Assembly: GCA_020631855.1 (NCBI GenBank)
Contig: JACKGU010000001.1
Location: forward strand, 295,601-359,600
Reading direction: 5' to 3'
DNA length: 64,000 bases
From: Candidatus Nomurabacteria bacterium
GTDB lineage: Bacteria > Patescibacteriota > WWE3 > UBA101185 > UBA10185
Below are positions 31,247 to 63,804 of this stretch, in pieces. Numbering within the stretch: the first letter of the stretch is position 1; each line of letters begins with the position of its first letter. The position numbers and the translations under genes are program-made. The notes beneath the pieces are model-generated. The model saw only the letters and a list, made by a program, of their open reading frames with translations, was not told the DNA's origin and made no database searches.

Positions 31247-31828
31247 TCAATTAATATAGTAAATAGCAAATGTAACTATAAGAGTATCCTTTCCGGAATT
31301 GGGATTGGAATCTACATCCGCCCGTGCACTAACCACTGCGTATACTCTTTTTGAGACACTCAGGTCCTGCAGAAATTTAGGCAAAGCAGAAATATCTCCT
31401 GTTAACTTAGCAGAATAGAGCTCAGAGTATTCAACATAATCCGACTTCGTCACACTGGAATCATTGGAGGATGTCCCCTTGACTTCATCAAGCGACAGTC
31501 CGTTAATCCTTGCTATCTGTGATAGTTCAAAAATCATACCATCGTAGTCCTTTTCAACGGGAACTCCATTCATAATAATTTCAGTTTTTAAATTTCTTAC
31601 TAAATAAGGCTCGAGCAGAGCTACACGATTTATATTGTTTTTTATAATAGTTCCTTGCTCCGAAAACTCTTTAACGAGATCTTTCTTATATTTATAGGCG
31701 GAATAACCCCTAACGGCACCGAAATATCCCACAACAACTACATTAAAAGCTAAAAAGCACAGAAACAAAACAAAATTTCTGTAAGGTCGGCTTTGTATTT
31801 CTCGATCATAATAATTATTCAACTTCAT
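31247..31828 (-). CDS. PilO-like bitopic membrane protein (putative type IV pilus alignment component)
   Basis: 193 aa; single N-terminal TM (FVLFLCFLAFNVVVVGYFGA); 'MIFELSQIARINGLSLDEV' resembles the conserved PilO segment. 4-nt overlap with the upstream PilN-like gene. Confidence 0.35.
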   Translation of the reverse strand: MKLNNYYDREIQSRPYRNFVLFLCFLAFNVVVVGYFGAVRGYSAYKYKKDLVKEFSEQGTIIKNNINRVALLEPYLVRNLKTEIIMNGVPVEKDYDGMIFELSQIARINGLSLDEVKGTSSNDSSVTKSDYVEYSELYSAKLTGDISALPKFLQDLSVSKRVYAVVSARADVDSNPNSGKDTLIVTFAIYYIN

Positions 31829-32466: not shown

Positions 32467-32728
32467 TGGCAGATACTTTCTTTGAAATCTTTGATTTTAT
32501 TCTGGCAGCCTTGTTCTTATGAATAACGTTATTTTTTGCAGCTTTATCTACTACTTTATACAATACTCTTTCCTGCTCTTTGATTATATCAAGTTCTTTT
32601 GTATTTGTAGAAAGCAATTTTTCTATTGCCTTCACAGAAGCCTTAATCTTGGTTTTCCAGAATATGTTATGAAGTCTTTTCTTCGCAGAAGATCTGACGG
32701 CTTTTTTTGCTGACTGTGTATTTGCCAT
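32351..32728 (-). CDS. rpsT: 30S ribosomal protein S20 with Lys-rich C-terminal extension
   Basis: Start at 'MANTQSAKKAVRSSAKKRLHN' (ATG 32726-32728; the longer ORF to 32767 is rejected). 'NVIHKNKAARIKSKI' matches the S20 'GLIHKNKAARHKANL' block. About 30 extra K/E/T/A-rich residues at the C-terminus. Confidence 0.85.
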   Translation of the reverse strand: MANTQSAKKAVRSSAKKRLHNIFWKTKIKASVKAIEKLLSTNTKELDIIKEQERVLYKVVDKAAKNNVIHKNKAARIKSKISKKVSANAQGPEKEKNTAEKETKVSTASKEKASKSKAKTKPATK

Positions 32729-32800
32729 ACTGCGGTAGTATGATAACACAGTAGCACAATTTGACAATACTTTGTTATACTAGGACCCCATAACTGATCA

Positions 32801-32920
32801 ACCACCACCAGCTGACGCAGGTGATTTGCTGTAATTTCTTTGCGCTGTAAAGCCCAACATGTTGGGCAAACTACATTTACTAGCTTACGCAAGTAGTTTT
32901 AAGTAACGAAATTATATAAG
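32801..32920 (+). repeat. Copy C of the ~115-nt structured repeat family
   Basis: ACCACCACCAGCTGACGCAGGTGATTTGCTGTAATTTCTTTGCGCTGTAAAGCCCAACATGTTGGGCAAACTACATTTACTAGCTTACGCAAGTAGTTTTAAGTAACGAAATTATA. Sits in the divergent spacer between rpsT and murJ. Confidence 0.85.
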
Positions 32921-32976
32921 ATAGCAAAAATTAAGACGGTGCTTAAATAATCGGCTGTGTACACAGGCCGTAATTT

Positions 32977-34671
32977 TTGCTAAAAAGAAACATACATAGA
33001 TACAAAAAAATGAAAAAGTTTTACAAAAACATAACCAATAAAATAAAAATTCGCGGAAGATGGAGCTTTATAGCCAAGGCGCAAAAAACTATACTTTCGG
33101 CAGCATTCGTGATCGCACTCTTTGCAGGCCTTTCTTCCATACTGGGCTTTGTCAAAGGGAGAATGCTAATTAACTTTTTCGGAGTTAGCGACGAGCTGGG
33201 TATCTTTTACGCCGCAGACAGAGTGCCCAACATGGTGTACTCAATAATAGTTGCCGGAGCTATATCCACTATATTCATTCCTGTATTCACCGATTTATTA
33301 AAAAAAGACAAAAAGGAGGCGTGGAAAACAGCCTCGAACGTCATTAACATTACACTGATTTCTTTCCTTTTTTTAGGGGGATTTCTGGTAATTTTTGCTT
33401 ATCCTGTCATGAATCTTTTATCCCTGGGCGAATTAACGCCGGAACAACTTAAGCTAGGGGCGGGCTTAATGAGAATAATGGTAGGATCACAGTTAATTTT
33501 AATTTTGAGCAGCCTGCTCTCAAGTATTCTCCAATCACATAAGTTCTTTTTAGTCCCAGCTGCAGCTCCAGTACTTTACAATGTGGGCATGATCGTCGGC
33601 TTGATTGCTCTATCCGGAAAATATGGGATATATGCTCCGGCGCTGGGCACAGTAGTTGGAGCCGCACTCCATTTGCTAATTCAGATACCTTTATTAAAAA
33701 AGACAAGCTTCTCCTATGTTGTAAGTAAAACATTGCTAAACAAAGAGACACGAAAAATTTTTTCACTTGTACCGCCTAGAATTGCGAGTGTGGTTCTAAC
33801 ACAGCTCTCCATTGTGGTCAACAACTCTCTTGCCATACTTATATCTCCTGCCTCGGTAGTTATCTTAAAATCCGCAAGCCAAGTTCAGTTTTTACCTGTA
33901 AACATTTTTGGGGCTTCTATGGCTTTAGCCTCGCTCCCCGTTCTTGCGGAACATGCGGATACAAGCGAGCACGACAAGTTTAAACGAATTTTTATAACCA
34001 CCTTACACCAAACCGCATACCTAGTACTTCCTTTTAGCGCCCTGATGCTTGTTCTAAGAGTTCCCATAGTGAGGATTGTTTATGGGGTTGCCAACTTTCC
34101 GTGGGAGGCCACGATAGAGACAGCCTTAACGCTTGGATTTTTCAGCTTATCAATATTTTCTCAAAGCGTAGTGTACCTGTTTACCAGAGCTTTTTATGCT
34201 CTAAAAGACACTACCACTCCTGTCACAGTGAGTTTGCTCACCATTATTATAAATACAACTCTTTCAGTATTTTTTGTACATTTTTTAAGATTGGGGGTGT
34301 GGTCTCTCGCAATGTCTTACACAATTACCAGCCTTCTGGACTCTATCTTACTTTTCTACAAACTGGATAGAAAATTAAACGGATTTATATTATCCGAGGT
34401 TTTAGTTCCTTTAATAAAGATATCGACCGCCTCCGCTATGATGGGTGTTTTCGTTTACGTGCCAATGAAAATACTTGATCTGTACGTTCTTGATACGTCC
34501 AGAACAATTCAACTTATCATAACCACAGGCACGTCTGCAGCGTCAGGGCTAGGGATCTACCTACTTCTTACTAAACTACTAAAAGTAGAGGAAGTGAATC
34601 TATTCTATAAACTGATACTCAAAATTAAACCGAAAAAAACTTTTCAAGAAGTAGTTTCAGAAGAACAGTAA
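32977..34671 (+). CDS. murJ: Lipid II flippase MurJ (MviN)
   Basis: 564 aa, about 14 TM; N-terminal 'FGVSDELGIFYAADRVPNMVYSIIVAGAISTIFIPVF' matches the MurJ consensus. Confidence 0.85.
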   Translation: MLKRNIHRYKKMKKFYKNITNKIKIRGRWSFIAKAQKTILSAAFVIALFAGLSSILGFVKGRMLINFFGVSDELGIFYAADRVPNMVYSIIVAGAISTIFIPVFTDLLKKDKKEAWKTASNVINITLISFLFLGGFLVIFAYPVMNLLSLGELTPEQLKLGAGLMRIMVGSQLILILSSLLSSILQSHKFFLVPAAAPVLYNVGMIVGLIALSGKYGIYAPALGTVVGAALHLLIQIPLLKKTSFSYVVSKTLLNKETRKIFSLVPPRIASVVLTQLSIVVNNSLAILISPASVVILKSASQVQFLPVNIFGASMALASLPVLAEHADTSEHDKFKRIFITTLHQTAYLVLPFSALMLVLRVPIVRIVYGVANFPWEATIETALTLGFFSLSIFSQSVVYLFTRAFYALKDTTTPVTVSLLTIIINTTLSVFFVHFLRLGVWSLAMSYTITSLLDSILLFYKLDRKLNGFILSEVLVPLIKISTASAMMGVFVYVPMKILDLYVLDTSRTIQLIITTGTSAASGLGIYLLLTKLLKVEEVNLFYKLILKIKPKKTFQEVVSEEQ

Positions 34672-34730
34672 TTATCTTTTCAATACAGAGAGGGGTTGTA
34701 GTTTTAGATCAAGAATTATAAAGTACTTTT

Positions 34731-36542
34731 GTGAACCATACAGCCAATATTAGAAATTTTAGTATTATTGCCCACATTGATCACGGCAAGTCTACCTTGG
34801 CGGATCGCTTGCTGGATATAACCGGCACTATAGAAAAAAGACAACTCAAAGATCAAACGTTAGACAGCATGGAGCTTGAAAGAGAAAAGGGTATAACAAT
34901 AAAGCTAAAGGCCGTTCGCATGAACTATACCCTCGATTCAATTGAATATCAGCTTAATCTCATTGATACGCCCGGACATGTGGACTTTTCCTATGAAGTT
35001 TCACGCTCTCTGGCTGCTTGTGAGGGCGCTGTTTTAGTTGTAGATGCTACACAAGGAATTCAGGCACAAACCGTTTCAAATGTTTATAAAGCTATAGATG
35101 CTAACCTAACAATCATTCCGGTCATAAATAAGGTAGATTTGGCAGGAAGTAATGTGGAAAAAACGGCCCAAGATTTAGTGGATACTTTTGGTTTTAAACA
35201 CGATGAAATTTTGCAAATCTCGGCAAAAACCGGCCTCGGGATTGAACGGCTACTTTCCGAAATTATTAAGAGAGTTCCTGCACCAAAAGATACCTATGAC
35301 AAGAATTTTCGAGGATTAATATTTGATACATATTACGATGAGTTCTTGGGCGTCATCGCGCTTATTAAGGTCGAGGACGGAAAAATTGAACTCCAGGATG
35401 TGAAAAACCATAGAAAAATATACTTAATGGCAACCAAAGCAGAGTCTGATCCTGAAAGTATAGGAATAATGGTTCCCCACCGCAAAGAAGTGGGATCTTT
35501 ATCTGCGGGGGAGGTTGGCTTCATCTCGACAGGCGTCAAAGATATAAAAACGGTCCGAGTAGGCGACACGGTTACTTTTAAAGATATCGCCTCCGCAACA
35601 CAGCAACTGGAGGGATACAAAGAAGTTAAACCCTTCGTATTCATGTCCATCTACCCAATTGAAAACGATAAATACCCTGAATTAAAAGACGCTTTAGAGA
35701 AGCTGTCTTTATCAGATTCTGCCCTTCAATACACCGCCGAAAGTAACTCCGCTCTAGGATTCGGATATCGTTGCGGTTTTTTAGGACTTCTTCACGCTGA
35801 CATAGTGCAGGAAAGGCTTGAAAGAGAATACAATCTGGAACTGATATCGACTACCCCTAGCGTAGAATATACCGCAACACTAACCACAGGGGAAACCGTA
35901 AAAGTGAAAAACCCATCAGAAATGCCCGAGCCCACTAGAATACAGAGTGTGCAAGAGCCGTGGATTATTTTACATATTTTTTCGCCGGCAACATACACAG
36001 GAGGGATAATTACCCTATGTGAAAGTCGGAGGGGCATTATGAGAAAAATGGAATACCCTACACAAGACACGATTATGTTTGAATACGAACTGCCTCTATC
36101 TGAACTTGTAAATAATTTTTTCGATGAACTCAAAACAATATCTTCCGGATATGCATCAATTGATTACGACTTTCTGGAATACAGAAATGTAAAAGTAATA
36201 AAAATGGACATTCTGGTACACGGAGCTGAGGTTGAGCCTTTGGCACAAATAGTTCTAAAAGATAACGCCCAAGCAATCGGCAAAAAAATAATAAACAGAC
36301 TAAAAGATGTAATACCACGACAACAGTTTGCAGTCGCTGTTCAAGCCGCCATAGGCGGAAAAATCATAGCTCGCGAGACCATACCGGCCATGAGAAAAGA
36401 TGTTCTATCGGGCATATATGGAGGCCACAGAGAAAGAAAAGATAAGTTATTAGAAAGACAAAAAAAAGGTAAAAAAAGAATGAAGAGACTAGGAAAAGTT
36501 GATATTCCGCAAGAAGCCTTTAGACAAGTTCTAAGTAATTGA
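34731..36542 (+). CDS. lepA: Elongation factor 4 (LepA)
   Basis: 603 aa; 'IRNFSIIAHIDHGKSTLADRLL', 'DTPGHVDF', 'NKVD', LepA C-terminal domain. Confidence 0.95.
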   Translation: MNHTANIRNFSIIAHIDHGKSTLADRLLDITGTIEKRQLKDQTLDSMELEREKGITIKLKAVRMNYTLDSIEYQLNLIDTPGHVDFSYEVSRSLAACEGAVLVVDATQGIQAQTVSNVYKAIDANLTIIPVINKVDLAGSNVEKTAQDLVDTFGFKHDEILQISAKTGLGIERLLSEIIKRVPAPKDTYDKNFRGLIFDTYYDEFLGVIALIKVEDGKIELQDVKNHRKIYLMATKAESDPESIGIMVPHRKEVGSLSAGEVGFISTGVKDIKTVRVGDTVTFKDIASATQQLEGYKEVKPFVFMSIYPIENDKYPELKDALEKLSLSDSALQYTAESNSALGFGYRCGFLGLLHADIVQERLEREYNLELISTTPSVEYTATLTTGETVKVKNPSEMPEPTRIQSVQEPWIILHIFSPATYTGGIITLCESRRGIMRKMEYPTQDTIMFEYELPLSELVNNFFDELKTISSGYASIDYDFLEYRNVKVIKMDILVHGAEVEPLAQIVLKDNAQAIGKKIINRLKDVIPRQQFAVAVQAAIGGKIIARETIPAMRKDVLSGIYGGHRERKDKLLERQKKGKKRMKRLGKVDIPQEAFRQVLSN

Positions 36543-37445
36543 CGAGATATAGGACTTCAATTTTTTCAGCTTAATTACATCTTCTAGCCTTCTGGTGCCG
36601 GCCTTTATCTCCATATAATATTCAAAAATATTAGTCACATCGTTGAGAAACTTCTTTGTTGAAACAACATACCCGGCTATTAGAACGAGCTCGGAGATTT
36701 GTTTAGTACCCATAAATACATCGCGCACAACAAGTAGCAAAATACTAAGTTTAAAAAAAGACACTAATGATTGAAGGCTGAACCAGGAAATAAAACGAAA
36801 AGACTGAACATCACCATACTTACCCCAAACTTTCTCAGCATAACTTTTTACGCGATCATTAACCAAAAGCCGTGAGTAATATTTCTCTCTAACCTGATCG
36901 AATTTTTCGTATAAAACCTCATAGTGTCTTGAAAGAAAATAAGAAGAGATAATATAGAAAGATATCGCAGAAACCTCTAAATAAAAGACTCGTACATCAA
37001 TCAACAATAAGATGAAAGGGATTAAAATAAACTCAACAATTCCCTGAAAACCATCGTCAATCATATGAGTTACAAACCGTCTAATGGCATGAGTTAAATT
37101 ACGAACTGCCTGCACTACCTCCATACGGTCTTTTTCTTTCGGAGAAAACGTTATTAAAAAGTCTGTTTGAACTTCAACAAGCTTTTTTTCTGTCGTAAAA
37201 GAAATCAAAGATTTTGATCCGACACGAACAAGGTGCTCAATAATTTCTGTAACTAGAATAAGGGCAAGGGGCAAAACGATTTCGCTAAGGGACATTCTTT
37301 GCTCTATACGATAAATGCCTAATGAAAATAGAAAAGTTACTAAAAGAGGCCCTAAGGTGCAAATAAGACGCAACAAAATATACAGGTTATACTCTCGCGT
37401 GAAAAAAAATTTAATTAAGTAGTTTCTTATAAGACGGGCAGTCAT
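36531..37445 (-). CDS. Polytopic membrane protein resembling an ABC-exporter transmembrane domain with no ATPase domain
   Basis: 304 aa, about 6 predicted TM helices with long cytoplasmic helical extensions; no Walker motifs. 12-nt convergent overlap with lepA. Confidence 0.35.
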   Translation of the reverse strand: MTARLIRNYLIKFFFTREYNLYILLRLICTLGPLLVTFLFSLGIYRIEQRMSLSEIVLPLALILVTEIIEHLVRVGSKSLISFTTEKKLVEVQTDFLITFSPKEKDRMEVVQAVRNLTHAIRRFVTHMIDDGFQGIVEFILIPFILLLIDVRVFYLEVSAISFYIISSYFLSRHYEVLYEKFDQVREKYYSRLLVNDRVKSYAEKVWGKYGDVQSFRFISWFSLQSLVSFFKLSILLLVVRDVFMGTKQISELVLIAGYVVSTKKFLNDVTNIFEYYMEIKAGTRRLEDVIKLKKLKSYISSIT

Positions 37446-37540
37446 GAATCAATTATACACAGCTAGACACTAGTTTAAACAAATTTTGCATTATAGGTTT
37501 TGTAAGAATTTCAAAGATTAATACAAGCAAACCATACTGC

Positions 37541-37576
37541 TTGACACTCTTAGCACTCATGATAATATAGTGACAA
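37541..37576 (+). promoter_or_regulatory. Sigma-70-like promoter (TTGACA-N16-TAATAT) overlapping a CIRCE-like inverted repeat, immediately upstream of hrcA
   Basis: TTGACA at 37541-46, TAATAT at 37563-68. The CIRCE-like element is at 37550-37576: TTAGCACTC-N9-TAGTGACAA. The left arm is a perfect CIRCE half-site; the right arm matches GAGTGCTAA at 6 of 9 positions with the canonical 9-nt spacer. Confidence 0.5.
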
Positions 37577-37577
37577 T

Positions 37578-38309
37578 ATGTTGTTAACAGAAAGACAGAT
37601 AAACCTACTAAAAGCTATCATAGAAGAGTATTTAGATACTGCTCAACCTGTTGGGTCCTCTCTTATTGTCGAGAAATACAACGTTAAATGCTCCCCTGCC
37701 ACAGTTAGAAACGAAATGGCAAGATTGCTCAGCGAAGGTTTTTTGCAGATGGAGCATACATCTTCGGGAAGAATTCCAACTTCTTCGGCTTATAAGTTCT
37801 TTTTGGAGGAATTGATGGAAGAAGAAGAGCTGGATGTCCTGCAGGAAGTTGCGATGAAACAGAAACTTTGGGCTAACAGATATGAATTTGAAAAACTTCT
37901 AAGACAAGCGGTACTCGCGTTATCTGAAATAACGCAAGAATTGGCCCTAGCTACAACCGATGACGGATACGTAATTCATGCAGGATCGGTTAACCTTTTG
38001 GATCACAAGGAGTTCACTGATGAAAATACAATAAAAAGCATACTACATATGCTGGACAGACACGAGGCGCTAGCAAAAATATTTGAAAAAATAAGCTTAG
38101 TAGATGACGGAGAAGTAAAATGTCTGATAGGCGCAGATTTGGAGCACCCGAACTTAGAAGGTTGCAGCGCAATTGTCGCAAAATACAGCGTGGGGAAAAG
38201 AAAAGGTTATATAGCGGTATTAGGTCCCTCAAGACTTCAGTATCAAAGAATAATCCCTTCACTTAGGTACACTAAAAATTTAGTAGAAGAACTTGGCGGT
38301 TCTTGGTAA
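37578..38309 (+). CDS. hrcA: Heat-inducible transcription repressor HrcA (short, 243 aa)
   Basis: 'LTERQINLLKAIIEEYLDTAQPVGSSLIVEKYNVKCSPATVRNEMARL' is the HrcA winged-helix N-terminus; operon with grpE-dnaK-dnaJ. Confidence 0.85.
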   Translation: MLLTERQINLLKAIIEEYLDTAQPVGSSLIVEKYNVKCSPATVRNEMARLLSEGFLQMEHTSSGRIPTSSAYKFFLEELMEEEELDVLQEVAMKQKLWANRYEFEKLLRQAVLALSEITQELALATTDDGYVIHAGSVNLLDHKEFTDENTIKSILHMLDRHEALAKIFEKISLVDDGEVKCLIGADLEHPNLEGCSAIVAKYSVGKRKGYIAVLGPSRLQYQRIIPSLRYTKNLVEELGGSW

Positions 38310-52570: not shown

Positions 52571-54832
52571 ATGTCCGCAAGAAGAGGCCGTAAAAAAAAG
52601 TTTAAGCTGAAGTTTAATATACGTGGGGAAACTGTACGATCAATTGCAGCGTTATTACTAATATTGCTGGCTGGGGTCGTGCTAGTGTCCTTTGCTGCAG
52701 GAGTAGTCTCAGTTGACTCATCTATTCAAAGAGTTCTAAAAATTCTATTTGGATACGCGCACCTTGCTCTAGTGCCGATTTTCCTTATCACCGGACTACT
52801 CTTAATAGACAGTATTGATTGGAGATTTGTAGAGGGCCGGGTCTTAGCCGGCTTCAGTATACTACTTTTCGGAGCATCGGGATTACTTCACGCATTCTAT
52901 CTCGGAGACGGCTACGAGGCAGCAAAAGCAGGAAAAGGCGGGGGAATAGTAGGATACAAGATTTTTTCTGTACTAAGTTCTAATACCAGCTCTCTTGGGG
53001 CAATTCTTGTTCTGCTTACCCTGGTTATAATCTCTATCCTTCTTATCTGGGATAAGCCTATCGAAGAACTTGCAGCAAAACTTTCTGCATTAGGTCTACC
53101 CTTCTCTAAACTCAAGGCGGCGGGACTTGAAAGAAAATCAAAGAACGCTAGCACACACCAGAAAGAGGATATTCACATTACTTCAGGACTCAATCTAAAC
53201 TTCAGCGATAACACAGGTTACAACGAAAGCATAGAGAGTTCTCCGGAAGAAGATGCAACAAATTATCACGACGAAGATTCTGCAGCCGAGGAGATAGAAA
53301 TAATTCCTTCTCTAGCCGAGCCTAAATCTAAGAATTCTCACGAATTCAAAACAAATCCAAAAGTAACAGATACTTTGGCCCCGGCACCCCTTCCCTATTC
53401 GGATAGGGTGTGGGAAAATCCCCCCTTGGATATCTTAAACGATCCTCCGAATACTCCCGTAGATCGAGGAGACATCAATCAGAGATCGGCAATTATTGTT
53501 AACGCCTTAGCTTCTTTCGGCATAAATGTTGTGGTTAAAGACGTGCGTTTTGGTCCCTCTGTAACCCAGTATGCGCTAGAAACGGAGCCGGGAACCAAAA
53601 TTACTAAAATTTTAAGCCACCAATACGACTTAGCCCTAGCTTTGGCTTCGCCCACAGGTTCGGTTAGAATAGAAGCTCCAATCCCCGGAAAAAGTTTAAT
53701 CGGTGTGGAAGTACCAAATAACACGAGGGTCGTAGTTCATTTCAAAGAACTCTTACTGTCTGAGCAGATGAAAAACATGAAATCAAAAATCGGCATGGTT
53801 CTGGGGCTTGATGTTGGGGGGCAGCCGAAAGTTTATAATATCGCAAAAATGCCACACTTACTTATCGCAGGAGCTACAAACTCAGGTAAATCGGTACTCA
53901 TTCACAACATAATGTTCTCAATACTTTTTAGGGCAAGTCCGGAAGAAGTAAAGTTCATACTCATAGATCCCAAGCGCGTTGAACTAATGTACTACAACGA
54001 CATACCGCACTTGCTAACCCCTGTAATCACAGAGACAGAAAAAGCTCCTGCAGCTTTTAAATGGTTGGTGGGCGAAATGACCAGGAGATACAACCTTCTG
54101 GAATCGGCGCACGTAAGAAATATAGAATCTTACAACGAAAAGTCGGGCTTTCAAGCAATGCCATACATAGTAATGATAGTCGACGAGCTGGGGGAAATAA
54201 TGGTAACCGATCCTGCAGCAGTAGAAAAAAGTATTATAAGACTAGCTCAATTAGCAAGGGCTACCGGAATACACTTGGTGTTAGCGCTGCAAAGGCCTTC
54301 CGCAAATGTAGTTACAGGACTTATTAAAGCCAACGTGCCTTGTAGGATCGCGTTTAATGTTACCAGCCAGGTAGATTCCAGGGTAATTATCGACCAGCCG
54401 GGGGCGGAAAAATTGCTAGGAAAAGGAGACATGCTTTTTATTCCTCCAGACGACTCCAAACCCACCAGAATTCAAGGCTCTTATATTGCCGATAACGAAA
54501 TCAATGCCCTGGTATCATATCTTAAAAGCACAGGCGTAAAACCCGACTATAAAGAAGAGATTCTCTCCACACACGAGCCGGAAAAAAGCGTCTCTCTAGG
54601 AGGAGATAATGTCGATGAATATTATGACGAAGCTATGCGAACTGTAATTTCGGAAGGCAGGGCTTCCGCATCCTTATTGCAGAGACGACTGCAGATAGGT
54701 TATTCACGAGCAGCAAGAATTCTGGACGAGCTTGAGGCAAACGGTGTTATAGGTCCGGCGAGAGGTGCAAAACCCAGAGAAATTCTAAACAACTCCATTG
54801 CCGATCTTGAAGACGAAGAAGATGTGATATAA
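52571..54832 (+). CDS. ftsK: DNA translocase FtsK/SpoIIIE
   Basis: 753 aa; N-terminal TM helices, linker, motor domain 'HLLIAGATNSGKSV', 'MIVDELGEIM', and a gamma winged-helix at the C-terminus ('SASLLQRRLQIGYSRAARILDELEANGVI'). Confidence 0.9.
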   Translation: MSARRGRKKKFKLKFNIRGETVRSIAALLLILLAGVVLVSFAAGVVSVDSSIQRVLKILFGYAHLALVPIFLITGLLLIDSIDWRFVEGRVLAGFSILLFGASGLLHAFYLGDGYEAAKAGKGGGIVGYKIFSVLSSNTSSLGAILVLLTLVIISILLIWDKPIEELAAKLSALGLPFSKLKAAGLERKSKNASTHQKEDIHITSGLNLNFSDNTGYNESIESSPEEDATNYHDEDSAAEEIEIIPSLAEPKSKNSHEFKTNPKVTDTLAPAPLPYSDRVWENPPLDILNDPPNTPVDRGDINQRSAIIVNALASFGINVVVKDVRFGPSVTQYALETEPGTKITKILSHQYDLALALASPTGSVRIEAPIPGKSLIGVEVPNNTRVVVHFKELLLSEQMKNMKSKIGMVLGLDVGGQPKVYNIAKMPHLLIAGATNSGKSVLIHNIMFSILFRASPEEVKFILIDPKRVELMYYNDIPHLLTPVITETEKAPAAFKWLVGEMTRRYNLLESAHVRNIESYNEKSGFQAMPYIVMIVDELGEIMVTDPAAVEKSIIRLAQLARATGIHLVLALQRPSANVVTGLIKANVPCRIAFNVTSQVDSRVIIDQPGAEKLLGKGDMLFIPPDDSKPTRIQGSYIADNEINALVSYLKSTGVKPDYKEEILSTHEPEKSVSLGGDNVDEYYDEAMRTVISEGRASASLLQRRLQIGYSRAARILDELEANGVIGPARGAKPREILNNSIADLEDEEDVI

Positions 54833-55475: not shown

Positions 55476-56285
55476 ATGGACCTTAATGCTGCTCAAAACA
55501 CCAATAATCAACAGCTAAACTCGCACCCAGACGATGCTCAGAAAAATAAGCTCAATACGATTTTACCGGGCACCAATTCTCAAAGCTTGGGAGGGAATTC
55601 TCCGATTACAAGCATTGCAGGGGTGTCGGACGACGATCTTCAAAACAAAAGCATAAATCTAGACACGCAAGATACCCTAAGTACAGAAAATAAGACCAAC
55701 ACAAACAAAGAAATAGAAAAAGCAAAAGGCTACAAAGATGACATAAGTAAAATTGTATATGACTTTCTAGAAAAAAACGGAGAGAGCCTAGACAGTATGG
55801 AAGAGGTTCCATCAGACATAGGACCCTCAATAAATAACCATCCCGCAACACTTGGCCCCGGAAAAGGAAGAAGGGAGATTTTTACAAGCCCTGTAATAGG
55901 AACTATTAGTGAAAATGCGCCTATAAGCCATCGCGAAACCTTCCAAACTGAAATAGACCCGGCTTCTCAAACAGAGCAGATTTCTGTAGCTAAGGCAGAA
56001 ACATCCGCTCAAGAAGAAAAAAATTCTTCGGAAATTCAAAGTATACAGGAAGTATTACAAAACCCACAACCAGATTCCGAGAATTACGATAAAATATCAA
56101 CATTGATTCCAGAAACCGAACCTATACCGCAGCCGGATAGTGATTTGAACGTTGTTGACCTGAGAACAGGCCATGAAAATTTGCAACAAATTGCCGATCC
56201 AATAGATAAATTAACTGAAGAAGCAGATGAGAAAGAGGCAGACTTTATAACAAAAGTGGAGGATACACATGCTGTCGCTAACTGA
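55476..56285 (+). CDS. Acidic, low-complexity (predicted disordered) protein
   Basis: 269 aa; D/E/Q/S/T/N-rich, no TM. 3' end overlaps the start of the downstream ATPase gene by 17 nt, implying co-translation. Confidence 0.4.
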   Translation: MDLNAAQNTNNQQLNSHPDDAQKNKLNTILPGTNSQSLGGNSPITSIAGVSDDDLQNKSINLDTQDTLSTENKTNTNKEIEKAKGYKDDISKIVYDFLEKNGESLDSMEEVPSDIGPSINNHPATLGPGKGRREIFTSPVIGTISENAPISHRETFQTEIDPASQTEQISVAKAETSAQEEKNSSEIQSIQEVLQNPQPDSENYDKISTLIPETEPIPQPDSDLNVVDLRTGHENLQQIADPIDKLTEEADEKEADFITKVEDTHAVAN

Positions 56286-58677
56286 TATAGCCTACAACAT
56301 CTTCTGGATACTCTTTTACATTATTTTCTTGGCGAGCACTATATTAGGAATATTTTATATGCTTGCCAAAACCAAAAGACAAAGATTTCTAAAAAACAAA
56401 CAATATAATTTGACCTTCTTCCATGTTAAAGTACCACAACAAAACGAATTCGAAATAGATGCGGCAGAACAACTTTTTGCAGGCGTGGCAGGTTTGAGAA
56501 GATCAACTCTGGAAGGACTTTTGAAAGGCCAATACCAAGTCTCATTTGAGATCTTGGCCAAACACGGGCAAATAGGCTTCTATATAGTAATGCCTGACGA
56601 ATTGGTGGAATTTATGGAAAAGCAGATTAACGGGGCCTATCCTACTGCCGAAATAGACATTATTGATCCAAACGAAGTTTGGGACAGAGGGCACTTCACA
56701 GCTATCGCAGAGCTAAAACTTAAAGGACCGGCATTCTACCCTATTAGAACGATAAAAGAGAAAGAAGGTGACCCGCTAAGCACTCTCACCTCGGTACTAA
56801 CAAAGCTGAAAAAAGACGAGGTTATAGCTATTCAGCTTGTAACCTCACCTGCCAGTAACTGGTGGAGGGCTGCAGGAAATGCTTTTATCGGACATGTCAA
56901 ACACGGCGGAAATCCCGAAAAGAAAAGTGCCCCAGACAACTCCATGCTGGAAGGTGTTGAGAAAAAAATAGGAAAAAGCGGGCTTGATGTCGTTGTGAGA
57001 GTTGTCTCAATAGCTGAAACCAAACACATAGCGGAAAGCCACATAATGAACGTTGTAACCGCCTTCGAGCAGTATACTGATGTTAAATACAATAAATTCA
57101 AAAAAAGCAGAGTTTTATTTAAAACAAAATTTGTAAATGATTTCATTTACAGAAACATAACGCCTCTAAATATATACATCCCGATTTTATATAACACACT
57201 TTATAGCAGAACCTCGGTACTGAATATTACTGAGATGGCAAACATCTTCCACATGCCTAACAAAAACATACAAACTCCAAACATTCTGTGGCTAATTGCA
57301 AGAAAGGCGTCAGCCCCGTCAAACATACCTCACGAAGGCCTGTATTTAGGAATCAATCAGTTTAGAGGCTCACAGAGAGGTATCTATATGAAAGAGAAAG
57401 ATCGTACACGACATATGTATATTATAGGGCAAACGGGCACAGGTAAATCCGAGTTTATGAAGACACTGGTACTACAAGATATTGCCGCGGGAAAAGGTTT
57501 GGCTCTAATTGATCCTCACGGAAGCGATATAGACGATATCTTAGAAAAAATCCCGGAAAGCAGAATAGACGACGTAATACTTTTTGATGTTTCAGATATA
57601 GAACGCCCGATGGGATTAAACATGCTTGAAGCTGAAACCGAGGAAGAGAAACACATGATTATTAACTCATTTATTGCCTTGTTATATAAGCTATACGACC
57701 CAAACAGACAAGGTATCATGGGCCCTCAACTTGAAAGGGCTATAAGAAACGTTATGCTAACCGCAATGGTAGATAAAGAATCAACCATGGTAGATGTTCT
57801 AAGGCTATTGATCGACAACAAATATGTAGAAACTTTTATACCAAGAATTCAAGATCCACTAGTTAAACGGTACTGGACTGATGAAATGGCCAACACAAGC
57901 GACTACCATAAAGGCGAGAAAATGGGCTATTTTGTATCAAAATTTGATAGGTTCGTAACAGAGAGGACCATGAGAAATATACTAGGGCAACCAAAAAGTG
58001 CATTTAATTTTAACAAGATTATGGCAGAAAAAAAGATACTGCTCGTAGACCTGTCTAAAGGTAAGATTGGAGAAGAGAATTCAAACTTTATCGGCCTGCT
58101 TCTGGTTCCACGAATACTTGCTGCAGCTCTATCCAGAGCTTCCCTTTTAGGTAAAGAGGATTTCCCTGATTTTTATCTTTATGTAGATGAGTTTCAAAAC
58201 TTTGCCACACCTGACTTTGCTACTATACTGTCGGAAGCCAGAAAATATAAACTAAATTTGGTTGTCGCGCACCAATTTGTGGCACAGTTAACCGACGACA
58301 TTAAAGAAGCCGTGTTTGGTAACGTAGGAACAACTTGTGTTTACAGGGTTGGTCCGGACGATGCCGAATATCTTGAAAAACAGTTTGACCCTTATTTCAC
58401 AAAGTCAGATTTATTAAACTTGCCAATTGGAAACGCTTACATGAGGCTGCTTGTCGACGGCCACCCAACAACGCCTTTTTCCCTTGCTGTAGATTGGGAC
58501 ATGGTTAATAAAACTAAAAAAGATCCTTCTGTGGCAAAGAGAATAAGAGAAAACTCAAGCATGAAATACGGAACACCAGTAAATGAGGTTGAGGAATACA
58601 TAAATAAAAGGGCAGGGCTGAATAAACAAGGCGAGGATAGCCAACTACTTGAAAAAAGAAGTTTAATACCTTTTTAA
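56269..58677 (+). CDS. VirD4/TraD/TraG-like type-IV coupling-protein-family ATPase with N-terminal membrane anchor
   Basis: 802 aa; N-terminal TM (IFWILFYIIFLASTILGIFYMLA), about 300-aa domain of unknown function, then Walker A 'IIGQTGTGKSEFMKTL', coupling-protein-like Walker B 'YLYVDEFQNFATP' (xxDEFxN), C-terminal 'LNLVVAHQFVAQL'. The FtsK/HerA superfamily is certain; T4CP subfamily is probable. Confidence 0.6.
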   Translation: MLSLTDIAYNIFWILFYIIFLASTILGIFYMLAKTKRQRFLKNKQYNLTFFHVKVPQQNEFEIDAAEQLFAGVAGLRRSTLEGLLKGQYQVSFEILAKHGQIGFYIVMPDELVEFMEKQINGAYPTAEIDIIDPNEVWDRGHFTAIAELKLKGPAFYPIRTIKEKEGDPLSTLTSVLTKLKKDEVIAIQLVTSPASNWWRAAGNAFIGHVKHGGNPEKKSAPDNSMLEGVEKKIGKSGLDVVVRVVSIAETKHIAESHIMNVVTAFEQYTDVKYNKFKKSRVLFKTKFVNDFIYRNITPLNIYIPILYNTLYSRTSVLNITEMANIFHMPNKNIQTPNILWLIARKASAPSNIPHEGLYLGINQFRGSQRGIYMKEKDRTRHMYIIGQTGTGKSEFMKTLVLQDIAAGKGLALIDPHGSDIDDILEKIPESRIDDVILFDVSDIERPMGLNMLEAETEEEKHMIINSFIALLYKLYDPNRQGIMGPQLERAIRNVMLTAMVDKESTMVDVLRLLIDNKYVETFIPRIQDPLVKRYWTDEMANTSDYHKGEKMGYFVSKFDRFVTERTMRNILGQPKSAFNFNKIMAEKKILLVDLSKGKIGEENSNFIGLLLVPRILAAALSRASLLGKEDFPDFYLYVDEFQNFATPDFATILSEARKYKLNLVVAHQFVAQLTDDIKEAVFGNVGTTCVYRVGPDDAEYLEKQFDPYFTKSDLLNLPIGNAYMRLLVDGHPTTPFSLAVDWDMVNKTKKDPSVAKRIRENSSMKYGTPVNEVEEYINKRAGLNKQGEDSQLLEKRSLIPF

Positions 58678-58687
58678 GAAAGACGCT

Positions 58688-60565
58688 ATGGTAGAAACAG
58701 CAACCGCCGCAAATGACGCTTTAACAGCATTAAAGGGAAGGAGCGAAACAAAAGTTTCGCCTCTTGAAGAATTTTGGACAAATATAAATGCGCTTACTGC
58801 GGCTTCGCGACAACTGCTGACTAAAATAGAAACCAGCCCCCAGAGCGGACTGAATCAACGCAGAGCCGCACAGCTAGCTAGACAGGCTTTGGCTAGCTAT
58901 GAGATGACGACTAGCCTGACAGAAAATCCCACTAATAGAGAGGAAATTAATGCCCTTTCCAGGTTAGGCGCTGCGACAAACATCGACCCAACAAATCTAT
59001 ACAGAGAGACAATATTACTACAGCCGGAAGTACACTCGTATGAATATTCGGTCAAGCTGTTATTCTCCCACATAGTGTCTATGACCACTGAGGACAGAAG
59101 CAACACCACAAAAAACTTAGCATTGGTTTTAGCCGGGAATTGCTTAGACGGGAGTAAGGTTGATGTAAGAAAAATTCAAAACGAGCTCAGAGAATTAAAT
59201 TTTCCGAACCACCACTTATCAGAAGCAGCAGAGGCCATCGCTGCTATAATCCGGCATACGCCTTACAATCTAACAGATCATCAAGAAAAATTGGGGGTAA
59301 CAGGATACCCGGAAGTCTTGGCTAAAGCTTATAAGAGACTCTACGATCTAGCAACCAAACTTGATCCGGATACACCGCCTACAAAAGCGGAAGAAAGGTC
59401 ACAGCACCAACCCTATGCCAATTGGGAAGCCAGGGCCAAAGAAAGAGAATCGATACACTACAACAGTAATCCTAGAGAACACAAAATATTTTCACGTAAA
59501 GGAGAGATTTTGACTGCCAAGGGTTCGGAGAATAAAACAGCCCAAGTCTTAATTCCAACTGCCATACTTACCAGAACCGTACCTTTGGCGGACTTTGCAG
59601 GCAATGACAGGGCTTTCAATAAAGGATACGTAAAACTACAGCAGGTATTTACCTGCACAACATTTCAAGAAGTCGAAGCTACCCTTGAAATGCTAAACGC
59701 AGCATCTATTGCAGAAGAAGAAAAAACAGCACAGGTACCCATATATGTTCCTAAAACCGTGGTTCAAAATGGAAAAACAACAATTGAATATGAGATAACC
59801 TACATGGAGATGCCGATTGGAACCTATAATAGCTGGCGTAAAGCTTTAATGGAGGCTCGCAAATCCTACCTTAGAGCAGGATTTTCTATTCAAAACCAAG
59901 ATATAACTGCTGGAGTACGCTTAGCAACAGAGCAAGAGAATGCCTATGCAGAACAGACAATGTTGAATAGATATCAAGAGCTTTTGTCTGGACCTAGCCA
60001 TATCAAAGATTCTCTAGACGCATGGATGAGTCAAAGTCATTCAAGGGACAGATTTTACATTAAAGAATTGATGCAAAATACAATGGAACTAGTAAATGAG
60101 TTGACTGAAGAGCTTAATTTGACCCGAAACCCTCGCAATATAACATTAGAGGCTATGAAAACTCTTTATGAAGAAGGGCATGAGCAGCACCCACTGACGA
60201 TGGAAAAAGAAATAACACAGATGTTCGACAACAGAATGGCCGAGCGCTCTAACTATTATGTTGCAATGAAGGTAGCTTTGACAACTCTTGAAAATGTAAA
60301 TGCTTTACCGCCGCCAAGAGATCGCAAAGAAGCAAAAGAACAGATTAGAATGATTATAAATGTTCAAACACAAATAAAACAAATAATGCTTTTCTTGGCA
60401 CTTCAAGAAAAGGGCGTCTCCGAGAGCCGTGCCTCACAAGTCGCGCTGGAAAACTTCCCGGAACACTCAGTGATTAAAGCTCAAGTACCTTATAGGGCTA
60501 GAAATAGTCAAGCCAGAAGGGTTGCAGGAAAGAGACAAGCTGTTAGCAACCAAGGCTCTAGTTGA
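58688..60565 (+). CDS. Hypothetical 625-aa soluble protein immediately downstream of the coupling-protein-like ATPase
   Basis: No TM, no recognisable catalytic motif; mostly helical. Starts 11 nt after the ATPase gene stop. Confidence 0.4.
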   Translation: MVETATAANDALTALKGRSETKVSPLEEFWTNINALTAASRQLLTKIETSPQSGLNQRRAAQLARQALASYEMTTSLTENPTNREEINALSRLGAATNIDPTNLYRETILLQPEVHSYEYSVKLLFSHIVSMTTEDRSNTTKNLALVLAGNCLDGSKVDVRKIQNELRELNFPNHHLSEAAEAIAAIIRHTPYNLTDHQEKLGVTGYPEVLAKAYKRLYDLATKLDPDTPPTKAEERSQHQPYANWEARAKERESIHYNSNPREHKIFSRKGEILTAKGSENKTAQVLIPTAILTRTVPLADFAGNDRAFNKGYVKLQQVFTCTTFQEVEATLEMLNAASIAEEEKTAQVPIYVPKTVVQNGKTTIEYEITYMEMPIGTYNSWRKALMEARKSYLRAGFSIQNQDITAGVRLATEQENAYAEQTMLNRYQELLSGPSHIKDSLDAWMSQSHSRDRFYIKELMQNTMELVNELTEELNLTRNPRNITLEAMKTLYEEGHEQHPLTMEKEITQMFDNRMAERSNYYVAMKVALTTLENVNALPPPRDRKEAKEQIRMIINVQTQIKQIMLFLALQEKGVSESRASQVALENFPEHSVIKAQVPYRARNSQARRVAGKRQAVSNQGSS

Positions 60566-60628: not shown

Positions 60629-61834
60629 ATGTTTAAACTGCCATTTAAAATAAATTTCAATAAAAAATCAAAAACGGATACTTTTTTAACAATAGACATA
60701 GGATCAAGCACAGTCAAAACACTAGCTTTTTATAATGACAGCGAAAGCAGATTAAAAGTAATCGGGCTGGGGAAGGAATTTTTACCCGAGGGTGCGGTAC
60801 GAGCCGGATATATAACTGATTTAAAAAGTGTCATAGAAGCAGTGGACGAAACAATTTATCAGGCCCTTGCTAATACGGAACACAGAATTACAGATGCGAT
60901 AATAGGAATATCCGAAAACCTGTGCTATTCGCAAGTTACAACCGGCCGGCTAAACAGAACTACGCCGGGAGAACTGGTTACAGAGAAAGAGCTGGATAAT
61001 TTGAAATACAAAATAATTGATGCTGCGTACAACACGGCCCTAGATGATTTTGTCTATAAAACCGGCGATCTTTCAACAGAGCTTATTCATATAAGCTCTA
61101 TTCCGGCCCATACAAAACTTGATTCAAAGATTGTTGACGACCCAACCGACTTGCCGGGAGCAAAAGTTGAGCTGGCAATTTACAATGCCTATTCCCCCGA
61201 ATATCATACAAAGCAACTGCAAAAAATTGCTGACACGCTAAAACTTTCAGTTTTAGCTATGGTTCCCAACATGTTCTCGTTAGGGGAAGCCCTAAAAAAA
61301 CTCACAAAGGACAATGAGTTGGATTGTATCATTTTAGATATCGGGGGAGAAACAACAGATGTAGGAATTATGTTTGGAGGGGGCCTTATAACTACAAAAA
61401 GCTTACCTATAGGAGGAAGGCACTATACAGAACAGCTATCTTTACAGAGCGGCCTTACTTGGGCAGAATCTGAAAAAAAGAAGAATCAGTACTATTTCGG
61501 ACAAACAGCAGATACAGAAACATCTTTCATCGAAACAGTAATGACTGAAACAACCGACCTGTGGCTCAGCGGGCTGGAAACCCTGTTTAATGAATTTAAT
61601 GGGGTCAGGACCTTTGCATCTGATATATTTGTAGTTGGGGGAGGAAGCTTGCTACCCGATATAATGGCAGCTCTAGAGTCCAGGCCATGGACAAAATCCA
61701 TACCTTTTAGAGAGCCGCCAAGAATAAAACGGGTCAGCATTTCTGAGCTGGATTTTGCTAGAGATACAACCGGCAAACTAAATGAATTGGATTATATTCA
61801 AGCCCTGTCTTTAGGTTTGATGGGAGAATATTAA
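60629..61834 (+). CDS. Actin-fold ATPase of the PilM/FtsA family
   Basis: 401 aa; 'FLTIDIGSSTVKTLAF...LKVIGLGKEFLPEGAVRAGYITD' (phosphate-1/adenosine motifs) and 'ILDIGGETTDVGIMFGG' (phosphate-2). No ftsZ follows, which favours PilM-like over FtsA. Confidence 0.55.
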   Translation: MFKLPFKINFNKKSKTDTFLTIDIGSSTVKTLAFYNDSESRLKVIGLGKEFLPEGAVRAGYITDLKSVIEAVDETIYQALANTEHRITDAIIGISENLCYSQVTTGRLNRTTPGELVTEKELDNLKYKIIDAAYNTALDDFVYKTGDLSTELIHISSIPAHTKLDSKIVDDPTDLPGAKVELAIYNAYSPEYHTKQLQKIADTLKLSVLAMVPNMFSLGEALKKLTKDNELDCIILDIGGETTDVGIMFGGGLITTKSLPIGGRHYTEQLSLQSGLTWAESEKKKNQYYFGQTADTETSFIETVMTETTDLWLSGLETLFNEFNGVRTFASDIFVVGGGSLLPDIMAALESRPWTKSIPFREPPRIKRVSISELDFARDTTGKLNELDYIQALSLGLMGEY

Positions 61835-63364
61835 ATGACAAAATTTGAAATTGAAATACACGACGATTTAATAAATGTGCTTGGAAAACTACAAACAATA
61901 AATGACGACGGAATTGAGCTCATTATTCCTGAAGGTTCAGTAATTTTTGAAAACATTTTAAATCTTAGAATTATTCAAAAAGAACTTGAAAAATCTGGAA
62001 AAACAATACATTTCGAGACGTCGGATGAAAACGGAAAAAGACTTATAGAAAATCTTGAAAATGACTCCTCCGGCCTTTCTTCCGAGCTGGATTTTACAGA
62101 AGCTGAAGCAACTGAAATAAACCCAAAAACACACAGAAAAAAACAACGCACGGTCTCGCTTGCATTACCTAAATTTAAATTTTCAGGGGGTACAAAATTT
62201 AAAATAGCAGGTTTAATAGGAGTTGTGACCGCCGTAATCATAGGAAGTTTATACCTATTGATTTGGAAACAGCATAAGGCAATCGTAAATTTAGTCGTGG
62301 AGGCACAGCCTCTGGTTAAGAGCGTACAGATTAGAGTGGCAACAAACAGCGAAACAAATACCGAACAAAAAACTCTAAAAGGCTCACAAGTAAGTACAAG
62401 CACCGTCCAGACCGCGAGCGTGCCAACAACAGGGGAAAAACTGGTAGGTAACCAAGCCTCAGGAACTGTAAAAATTTACAACAAAACAACAAATGGTAAA
62501 ACCTTTAAAAAAGGTACGGTTCTTGTCTATAAAAAAGACGATAAAACCCTAAAATATACACTTGACGAAGAAGTAGAAGTACCTGAAAGAACGGAAGATA
62601 TCTTGCAGGATCCGCCATTAATAACTTGGGGTGAAAAAGAAGTTGATGTTACAGCAGAGGAAATAGGAAATTCTTATAATATTGACTCGGGCGAAAGTTT
62701 GGATTTTGATGATTTCGACAAGGACGATTACACTGCAAAGAGCACGACAAAAATCAACGGGGGCAGCAGCGAGACACTTAAAATTGTGGCCCAAGAAGAT
62801 ATAGACAACCTACTTATCGAGCTGGAAAAAAGTGACGATAAAACTAAAACCGAGCTACAGCAAAAAACTTCGACAGGACGAAAATTAATTCCCGGGTCAA
62901 TCAGCCTTCAGACAACAAAAGATTCCTTTAGCGCCGAACTAGGAGACGAGGCGGAAAATCTAGAGCTTGTCAGAGAAGCGACGGCCACAGGGCTAACTTA
63001 TTCCGAAAATGAACTGGAAGTTCTACTAGACAGACTCGTAGATGATTTCGTCCCGGAAGGCTTTGAGCTATCGACAAAAGACAAGGAGATAAAAGCAGAG
63101 GTCTTAGGTGCAACGGAAACTACGACACTTTCAAGCGAACAGGCCGATTTACAGGTAACCATTAAGGCTTACGTGATACCAAAAATTGATGAGATCGAGC
63201 TAAGGGAGAATTTGGCAGGGGCCCCGTTGTCGAAAGCAGAAGAAATATTAAATGCTATTTCTAATGTTGCAACCTATTCTTTAGATGTAAAACCAAATAT
63301 TCCGCTGCTTAATTCCCTTCCCCATAATCCGGAAAATATAGAGATAACAGTAACTAAAAGGTAA
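61835..63364 (+). CDS. Bitopic membrane protein (about 115-aa cytoplasmic N-terminus, 1 TM, about 370-aa extracytoplasmic domain), hypothetical
   Basis: 509 aa; TM 'IAGLIGVVTAVIIGSLYLLIW'; T/S/E/K-rich external domain. Starts 1 nt after the PilM/FtsA-like gene. Confidence 0.4.
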   Translation: MTKFEIEIHDDLINVLGKLQTINDDGIELIIPEGSVIFENILNLRIIQKELEKSGKTIHFETSDENGKRLIENLENDSSGLSSELDFTEAEATEINPKTHRKKQRTVSLALPKFKFSGGTKFKIAGLIGVVTAVIIGSLYLLIWKQHKAIVNLVVEAQPLVKSVQIRVATNSETNTEQKTLKGSQVSTSTVQTASVPTTGEKLVGNQASGTVKIYNKTTNGKTFKKGTVLVYKKDDKTLKYTLDEEVEVPERTEDILQDPPLITWGEKEVDVTAEEIGNSYNIDSGESLDFDDFDKDDYTAKSTTKINGGSSETLKIVAQEDIDNLLIELEKSDDKTKTELQQKTSTGRKLIPGSISLQTTKDSFSAELGDEAENLELVREATATGLTYSENELEVLLDRLVDDFVPEGFELSTKDKEIKAEVLGATETTTLSSEQADLQVTIKAYVIPKIDEIELRENLAGAPLSKAEEILNAISNVATYSLDVKPNIPLLNSLPHNPENIEITVTKR

Positions 63365-63366
63365 AA

Positions 63367-63804
63367 ATGAAAAATAAAAATACTCCCTCAAAAAACACTA
63401 CCTATCTTGGGGTAGATTATGGAAAAAAGAGAACCGGCCTTGCGTTAGGAAGAAACGGACTCACTGCAATACTCACAGCAATAGACTCAAAAGACACGAT
63501 TTATGCATTAAATGAGTTGGCAAAGATTATTGCCCTAAATAAAGTGGATGTCATAGTTTTTGGACTTCCGCTCGATGCCGAGGGTAAAGACACTGCAATG
63601 TCTATAGAAGTTCGAACATTTGCAAACAGCCTAAAAAGAAAAATTAAAAAGAATATTCAATATGTAAACGAATTCCAGTCATCGGTGGAAGCAACAGAAG
63701 ATGCAATAAGCTCGGGTTTATCAAAAAAAGGTCGAAAATCTGTTGACAGTATATCTGCCGGAATTATTTTGAAAAGGTATTTCGAAAATCTTGATACAGA
63801 GTAA
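63367..63804 (+). CDS. ruvX: Holliday-junction resolvase-like RNase H-fold protein RuvX/YqgF
   Basis: 145 aa; 'YLGVDYGKKRTGLALG' N-terminal Asp motif, 'VIVFGLPLDAEGK'. Confidence 0.85.
   Translation: MKNKNTPSKNTTYLGVDYGKKRTGLALGRNGLTAILTAIDSKDTIYALNELAKIIALNKVDVIVFGLPLDAEGKDTAMSIEVRTFANSLKRKIKKNIQYVNEFQSSVEATEDAISSGLSKKGRKSVDSISAGIILKRYFENLDTE

Follow-up and report, generated by a model that had tools for sequence, protein, structure and literature searches.

Quinonero-Coronel et al. (2025) found VirB4-centred, monoderm-type clusters of genes for a type IV secretion system (T4SS) in 2,417 of 3,035 Patescibacteria genomes, with relaxases almost always absent (PMC12102498). The same survey counted 5,713 genes for VirD4-like "T4CPs" (type IV coupling proteins) in 2,918 Patescibacteria genomes, only 148 of which lie near virB4. 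Wang et al. (2023) described an essential T4SS cluster, without a recognisable coupling protein, in Ca. Southlakia epibionticum ML1 (PMC10633639). Here, we analyse an ATPase gene found in a 64-kb stretch of DNA (hereafter, the window) of contig JACKGU010000001.1, from a Candidatus Nomurabacteria bacterium of the WWE3 lineage. We find that the ATPase is a member of the VirB4/VirD4 branch; in architecture and predicted fold it resembles VirB4, and in sequence motifs the coupling proteins. Its sequence suggests a catalytically competent P-loop enzyme of the FtsK-HerA superfamily, anchored in the cytoplasmic membrane by one transmembrane (TM) helix; it is probably hexameric.

The open reading frame (ORF) is intact. 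A preliminary description, made from the letters of the sequence, had reported the motifs GQTGTGKS, YVDEFQNF and AHQFVAQL behind an N-terminal TM helix and a 300-residue domain of unknown function. All are present, YVDEFQNF at amino acids (aa) 638–645 and AHQFVAQL at aa 667–674, with about 300 aa ahead of the motor; the domain corresponds to Pfam PF26449 (DUF8128), an annotation precomputed on the identical protein, which NCBI labels "DUF87 domain-containing protein", and on all top homologues. The N-terminal helix has a Kyte-Doolittle value of 2.49 for the 19-mer at aa 11, and no second TM helix was found by hydropathy on this scale. It is followed by the basic stretch KTKRQRFLKNK, which indicates that the remainder of the protein is cytoplasmic. 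An AlphaFold2 model, built from 38 homologues, is confident (predicted local distance difference test score 83.5) and places a helix at aa 4–44. In Foldseek comparisons, TrwK aligns collinearly with the full chain, and the best structural match is VirB4 for both domains. The predicted layout is of the VirB4 type, in that a VirB4-like N-terminal domain (NTD) is followed by a C-terminal RecA-like ATPase domain. It is not that of a T4CP, in which the anchor leads directly into the nucleotide-binding domain; although an anchor and an all-alpha insertion are present, the VirB4-NTD-like DUF8128 domain intervenes. The catalytic set of the T4CPs is complete, with intact Walker A, Walker B and Arg/Gln motifs; in the alignment with TrwB, R658 falls on the Arg of the G-R-K motif, and the Gln of the L-Q-S motif is matched by Q669. 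Neither the HAS-barrel N-domain of HerA nor a NurA or defence-effector partner was found. All of these structural statements depend on predicted models.

Taken together, sequence models give a signal that is mixed and weak. In the Pfam searches proposed with the preliminary description, DUF87/HerA-central matches at 3e-7, TraG-D_C (PF12696) at 1e-5 (25.9 bits, cutoff 22) and TrwB_AAD_bind (PF10412) at 1.6e-4 (21.1 bits, cutoff 20.5), the last covering only the P-loop. PF02534 has no match in the window protein and matches a Saccharibacteria member of the family at 34.4 bits (cutoff 20.1). FtsK_SpoIIIE stays below its cutoff, and the protein has neither the alpha/gamma domains nor the multi-TM N-terminus of an FtsK-type layout. 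The NCBIfam T4CP models score 18–43 bits against cutoffs of 250–800, led by the TraD and VirD4-like models, with the CD1115 VirD4-like model aligned over the entire motor. Models of VirB4 are not matched significantly: TIGR00929 gives an E-value of 0.017 (13 bits, cutoff 643), AAA_10 gives 20.5 bits (cutoff 27.5) and PF03135 gives nothing. When a profile of the family is searched against all PDB sequences, DotL (3.8e-6) and TrwB (9.6e-5) rank first, followed by HerA (0.017–0.08) and the C-terminal domain of VirB4 (4ag5, 0.89); no FtsK is matched. An FtsK identity is excluded, and HerA and DptH have only the generic motor in common with this protein. The preliminary label of a VirD4/TraD-like coupling protein is right in part: T4CPs rank first in the search against PDB sequences, the N-domain is predicted to be VirB4-like, and the NCBIfam T4CP models remain far below their cutoffs.

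Homology searches returned 4,187 word-sharing matches and 21,229 representatives at E < 1e-3. A scan with one genome per species found homologues in at least 599 species, from WWE3, many Microgenomates groups, Dojkabacteria, and the Doudna-, Magasanik- and Uhrbacteria (ABY1/Parcubacteria lineages). These matches are full length; their identity, 62% at the highest and 36% at the lowest, declines more or less in step with taxonomic distance. Saccharibacteria members were found by a separate homology search. Two of them can be aligned to the window protein over their whole length, at 36% identity in 766 columns (E 1e-154 to 1e-156); they share its DEFQNF and EARKY signatures, and match hidden Markov models (HMMs) made without those sequences at 4e-62 for the N-domain and 6e-165 for the motor. 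Across 80 family sequences, in which motor identity to the window protein is 43–74%, the Walker A residues G387, G390, G392 and K393, the Walker B and signature residues D640, E641, F642, Q643 and N644, and R658, K659, Q669 and Q673 are all invariant, as are the positions of G-N-x-G. The N-terminal TM helix is kept in 79 of the 80. Active-site invariance, retention of the TM helix and identity that tracks taxonomy together mark the gene as a strongly constrained part of the vertically inherited core, and not as cargo of a mobile element.

The family has some unusual members. Certain homologues are 1,400–2,000 aa long (for example, P0152, P0164 and P0204), with the motor either at the extreme C-terminus (about residues 1000–1500) or near the N-terminus with a long extension after it. 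The conjugative Rhodococcus plasmid pYYL1.1 encodes a 738-aa relative of the motor, followed by a DUF5663 protein (L082 10537-10860). This relative sits among genes for CYTH, NYN and CHAT domains, in what may be a defence or stress island and not the MPF_T transfer region of the plasmid.

The only conserved neighbour of the ATPase gene is a small, fast-evolving ORF that abuts its start codon. In 72 of 76 testable loci, an ORF on the same strand (median 141 aa) has its end near the start of the ATPase gene, mostly within a few nucleotides (nt), and the arrangement recurs in Saccharibacteria. The encoded proteins are polar and of low complexity, 65 of the 72 have no TM helix, and they carry a short C-terminal segment that is conserved but differs between lineages. 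Iterative HMM searches gave four families, which cover 42 of 75 upstream ORFs; no cross-matches were seen among the four, and homology of these ORFs across lineages was not retained as a result. A Trp-basic helix motif occurs in 39 of the 75, versus 194 of 2015 decoys, with a p-value that is inflated by the post hoc definition of the motif. In the window, the WWE3 version of the small partner is an acidic protein of 269 aa, without a match in Pfam, NCBIfam, PADLOC or PHROG; its C-terminal motif EADFITKVEDTHAVAN (E-x-DFI-x-x-V-x-x-x-H) is common to the WWE3 copies. The preliminary description had suggested that this protein and the 625-aa orphan downstream might belong with the ATPase to one system. 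For the acidic protein the suggestion is supported by the phylum-wide pairing; for the orphan it is not, since no homologue was found in 84 related loci. We infer that the ATPase and the small disordered protein encoded upstream work as a two-gene module.

Published data from ML1 provide a functional lead. Tables S1 and S2 of Wang et al. list two proteins of similar general layout, SEML1_0293 and SEML1_0142 (PMC10633639). SEML1_0293, which has strong matches to TrwB_AAD_bind, TraG-D_C and DUF87, is non-essential. Transposon sequencing (Tn-seq) scored SEML1_0142, of 1019 aa, as essential at every time point, and likewise SEML1_0141, a small ORF that lies 13 nt upstream of it. In ML1, rplT-rpmI-infC-YifB lie on the minus strand, and next come small ORFs, SEML1_0141, SEML1_0142, two inserted genes and gyrB-gyrA (PMC10633639). 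This order matches the surroundings of DUF8128 ATPases on two Saccharibacteria contigs (rplT-rpmI-infC-YifB / small ORF-ATPase / gyrB-gyrA). Because this order is shared with loci whose ATPases align end-to-end with the window protein, SEML1_0142 would be the positional ortholog of the DUF8128 family. Like the window ATPase, it is preceded by a small ORF, and an N-region of about 380 aa comes before its P-loop domain, which begins near residue 381; unlike it, SEML1_0142 ends in a tail of about 220 aa and sits between YifB and gyrBA, not between ftsK and ftsA.

The two published studies can be read side by side on this point. Quinonero-Coronel et al. call the t4cp homologue of ML1 non-essential, and perhaps exapted (PMC12102498), yet the table of Wang et al. 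(PMC10633639) holds a second VirD4/VirB4-like ATPase, SEML1_0142, that is essential together with SEML1_0141. The essentiality of this pair is apparently not discussed in the main text of either paper. Table S3 of the 2025 survey also lists Woesebacteria with single, virB4-distant T4CP calls (PMC12102498), and these calls are consistent with members of the DUF8128 ATPase family.

Our preferred explanation, to which we assign a probability of about 0.5, is that the DUF8128 ATPase docks on a T4SS encoded elsewhere in the genome and supplies a second, or coupling, ATPase. Through its TM helix and its N-domain of VirB4-like fold, the ring would attach to the chromosomal, non-conjugative T4SS of monoderm type found in most Patescibacteria, and would provide the "second"/coupling ATPase that is missing from the T4SS cluster. 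ATP hydrolysis would then feed a polymer substrate, protein or DNA, into the T4SS channel, and the small partner might act through its conserved C-terminal helix as an adaptor, regulator or substrate receptor. A stronger version is possible but more tentative: the module may be Patescibacteria-wide and essential, with an ATPase that is a VirB4/VirD4 hybrid or intermediate and serves as the unrecognised motor of the essential, relaxase-less epibiont T4SS, while the canonical-looking T4CP paralog, dispensable though taken for the coupling protein, would be a red herring. All functional statements made here draw on homology and synteny, together with a single Tn-seq data set from the literature. 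The preliminary description, which had suggested that the protein may belong to an undescribed T4SS-like system of host interaction or DNA uptake, was right to see a core-genome context without T4SS genes nearby; the 84 loci offer no T4SS gene to go with it.

Several observations weigh against a T4SS role. The 56 kb upstream and the 15 kb downstream of the ATPase contain no T4SS component, and none recurs near the gene in the 84 loci, so that the link to a T4SS depends on homology alone. The neighbours that do recur are genes of DNA replication and cell division, which would suit a role apart from any T4SS just as well. Outside the Candidate Phyla Radiation (CPR), the closest relatives on plasmids, which have the motor only, are likewise orphans without informative or T4SS context. 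Assemblies named WWE3 are absent from the dataset of the 2025 survey (PMC12102498). One caveat to the ML1 comparison is that the orthology of SEML1_0142 comes from synteny through relatives and not from the ML1 sequence itself; another is that a gene scored as essential by Tn-seq in co-culture may serve host interaction or basic viability, which the assay does not tell apart.

Chief among the rivals is a housekeeping translocase that is independent of any T4SS, that is, a membrane ring ATPase that moves DNA or protein in segregation, division or envelope biogenesis, as FtsK, SftA and SpoIIIE do. Core-gene conservation, the essential ortholog and the constant absence of an adjacent T4SS gene would all fit, as would the company the gene keeps: ftsK and the ftsA-like gene in WWE3, and, in other lineages, XerC/D-like genes (29 loci), FtsB/DivIC-like genes (26), RNR/NrdR, DnaX and, in Saccharibacteria, gyrB-gyrA. 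We consider it unlikely all the same, since the N-domain is specific to VirB4 and a genuine FtsK is already encoded. It is also conceivable, though more doubtful, that the protein is a second assembly ATPase of the VirB4 type, in effect a VirB3-VirB4-like fusion that energises the assembly of a pilus or envelope structure and not the coupling of a substrate. VirB4 is the best structural match for both domains, a TM helix before a VirB4-like NTD recalls VirB3-VirB4 fusions, and arrays of VirB2-like pilins occur in Patescibacteria T4SS clusters. Yet DotL and TrwB outrank VirB4 in the profile search, the NCBIfam models for VirB4 are the weakest of all, a bona fide VirB4 and TrsD already reside inside the T4SS cluster, and the VirB4 profile of the survey found no VirB3-VirB4 fusions (PMC12102498).

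Two further explanations carry much less weight. That the protein is a HerA-, DptH- or MADS mad8-type ATPase of a defence system is improbable: the PADLOC matches that might suggest it span the generic motor only; in none of the loci examined is there a nuclease, Sir2, methylase or any other partner of a defence system near the gene; and a near-universal gene in stable housekeeping context, with an essential ortholog, is unlike what is found in defence islands. Least credible is a canonical coupling protein of an integrated conjugative element or degraded plasmid. The weak TraD, TraG and TrwB family matches, and database labels of the same kind, are what speaks for it. Against this, the NCBIfam T4CP scores are all far below cutoff, the gene has the composition of its flanks, its relatives occupy a syntenic core position and their identity follows taxonomy, and no relaxase, integrase, tRNA or mating-pair formation (MPF) gene was found in the 64 kb of the window and the 10 kb beyond. 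A mobile-element origin was accordingly rejected.

We annotated essentially all ORFs of at least 110 aa in the window. Those with Pfam matches are all housekeeping genes, among them genes for ribosomal proteins, EF-Tu/G, RpoB/C, SecA, aminoacyl-tRNA synthetases, MurJ, LepA, HrcA-GrpE-DnaK-DnaJ, NusA, IF2, PNPase, RNase J and FtsK. In agreement with the preliminary description, no relaxase, VirB4, VirB6 or integrase was found among the annotated ORFs, although four ORFs without a Pfam match (30.4–32.5 kb and 36.5–37.4 kb) may be divergent small membrane components; nor is there a tRNA in the 64 kb. Other contigs of the same organism extend the view by 10 kb past the window end, where only housekeeping genes occur, and this extension likewise reveals no integrated conjugative element. 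The GC content and GC3 of the ATPase gene are in line with those of its neighbours. Genes of the VirB3, VirB6, VirB8 and TrsD types are found beside the ATPase in none of the loci examined.

The ATPase gene lies in a co-directional array of ftsK (52571-54832), a DUF948-like ORF, a YtxH ORF, the acidic 269-aa ORF and the ATPase itself, so that three small genes separate ftsK from it. A 625-aa ORF, an FtsA/PilM-like gene (60629-61834), a gene for a 509-aa membrane protein and ruvX follow (Table 1). A BLAST comparison of all window neighbours with 80 related loci found conservation within WWE3 only: of the ftsA-like gene, the 509-aa ORF and ruvX in two loci, and of DUF948/YtxH in one. While ftsK upstream and the FtsA/PilM-like gene downstream are thus placed as first described, ftsK adjoins the ATPase in none of the 80 loci and the ftsA-like gene does so only in WWE3. 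The five-gene neighbourhood, whose conservation had been singled out for checking, is not kept among these loci, and we rejected it as a functional unit. The 625-aa ORF is a lineage-specific insertion; it has the GC content of its flanks and is confined to this organism, in which it occurs on 15 contigs, and in the nearest WWE3 relatives the ATPase stop codon lies 25–46 nt from the FtsA-like gene without this ORF in between. In these relatives the FtsA-like/509-aa/RuvX block directly follows the ATPase, with no ftsZ nearby. The FtsA-like gene matches TIGR01174 at 3e-29 (below cutoff), with PilM second, and the 509-aa protein has a weak Baseplate_J match. A scan for promoters and terminators across 54.7–62 kb gave counts at chance level.

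Table 1. Coordinates, in window positions, of the ATPase gene, its domains and motifs, and flanking features.
Feature	Position	Strand	Remarks
Acidic, low-complexity partner, 269 aa	55476-56285	+	stop overlaps ATPase start by 17 nt
DUF8128-family membrane ATPase ORF, 802 aa	56269-58677	+	intact; TM helix, predicted VirB4-NTD-like domain, VirB4/VirD4-type P-loop motor
Single N-terminal TM helix (about aa 8-34)	56290-56370	+	followed by basic cytoplasmic stretch
DUF8128 (PF26449) domain (aa 45-350)	56401-57318	+	predicted VirB4-NTD-like fold
RecA-like P-loop motor (aa 355-785)	57331-58623	+	VirB4/VirD4/HerA branch
Walker A, GQTGTGKS (aa 387-394)	57427-57450	+	
All-alpha insertion inside motor (aa 458-586)	57640-58026	+	eight predicted helices
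Walker B and family signature, LYVDEFQNF (aa 637-645)	58177-58203	+	
EARKY ... AHQFVAQL segment (aa 656-674)	58234-58290	+	
625-aa ORF	58688-60565	+	no Pfam, NCBIfam, PADLOC or PHROG match
FtsA-like gene, 509-aa single-TM protein, RuvX block	60629-63804	+	

Elsewhere in the window, genes run on the minus strand up to about 24.8 kb and on the plus strand from about 37.5 kb onwards (region ~24000-38000), the cumulative GC skew has its minimum at about 34–38 kb, and the AT skew changes sign. Orientation and skew would fit an origin of replication some 20 kb upstream of the ATPase gene; the window showed no dnaA. A sortase gene (29460-30215) adjoins three minus-strand ORFs without Pfam match (region 29460-32466). 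One of these encodes a Gly/Thr/Ala-rich protein of 204 aa with hydrophobic segments near both ends; the other two encode bitopic proteins (193 and 213 aa) with a basic N-terminus and then a TM helix, a layout like that of PilN/PilO. A class II aminoacyl-tRNA synthetase of 727 aa (22579-24762, minus strand) joins tRNA-synt_2, an OB anticodon domain and a C-terminal HD domain, an unusual fusion. On the plus strand at 24908-27671, genes for a short PGK (321 aa, three-piece match), a 305-aa protein and a short TIM (218 aa) stand in a row, the middle one consisting of the N-terminal domain of aldehyde-ferredoxin-oxidoreductase only. The three may represent glycolytic genes in reduced or rearranged form.

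That Patescibacteria carry orphan VirD4-like genes has been reported before (PMC12102498), and the headline observation is in that sense not new. The searchable literature yielded nothing on PF26449 or DUF8128. New with respect to it are the fold predicted for DUF8128, similar to that of the VirB4 NTD, the small coupled partner found across the phylum, and the correspondence, by synteny, of the family to the essential ML1 pair SEML1_0141/SEML1_0142 and not to the dispensable SEML1_0293. Patescibacteria, to which a major part of bacterial diversity belongs, live attached to host cells. The T4SS on their chromosome was the first for which a role essential to the carrier itself was shown, and its gene cluster has no recognisable coupling protein. 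The DUF8128 family offers a genetically testable candidate for the missing motor of this host-interaction machinery, and a good one because it is core and phylum-wide, keeps its active site invariant, has a predicted docking domain of VirB4 type, comes with a small partner and has an essential counterpart in a tractable species. In ML1, the only tractable species, both genes of the putative positional ortholog pair are essential and the canonical-looking T4CP paralog is not. DUF8128 also receives a structural assignment, from predicted models, and the family may represent an intermediate form in the divergence of VirB4 and VirD4.

How does this ATPase compare with known systems? Two TM helices are typical of T4CPs. 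The window ATPase differs from members of this group (VirD4, TrwB, TraD and DotL; PF02534, PF10412 and PF12696) in having a single TM helix, and a predicted VirB4-NTD-like domain of about 300 aa between anchor and motor; to our knowledge, no canonical T4CP has such a domain in that position. It is further set apart by the absence of a relaxase or T4SS neighbour and by being a core vertical gene. From the VirB4 ATPases, such as TrwK of R388 and VirB4 of T. pseudethanolicus (MPF-FATA type), it differs by the lack of a significant VirB4-profile match, by its own TM helix, and in not being encoded with VirB3, VirB6, VirB8 and TrsD; genomes of the CPR have a separate, cluster-encoded VirB4 apart from the DUF8128 ATPase. 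Compared with HerA, DptH (DndH) and MADS mad8, this protein lacks the HAS-barrel N-domain of HerA as well as nuclease or defence partners, is membrane-anchored and is encoded by a core gene. FtsK and SpoIIIE belong to the same ring-translocase superfamily and are likewise membrane-anchored. The full architecture of DUF8128 and motor is found outside CPR in gp156 of Bacillus phage G and gp27.4 of SPO1 (PHROG 5156). Their N-domains resemble DUF8128 at E-values of 2e-29 and 4e-18, their motors match at 6.5e-44 and 4.6e-26, and the window protein matches phrog_5156 at 4e-87; unlike the window ATPase, however, they are phage-encoded and only about 21% identical to it. In phage G, gp156 directly follows gp155, an ATPase of the VirB4/TraG-P-loop type (L089 2228-6370; for SPO1 gp27.4, L090 3494-6214), and we count this adjacency as a supporting pairing for a T4SS motor.

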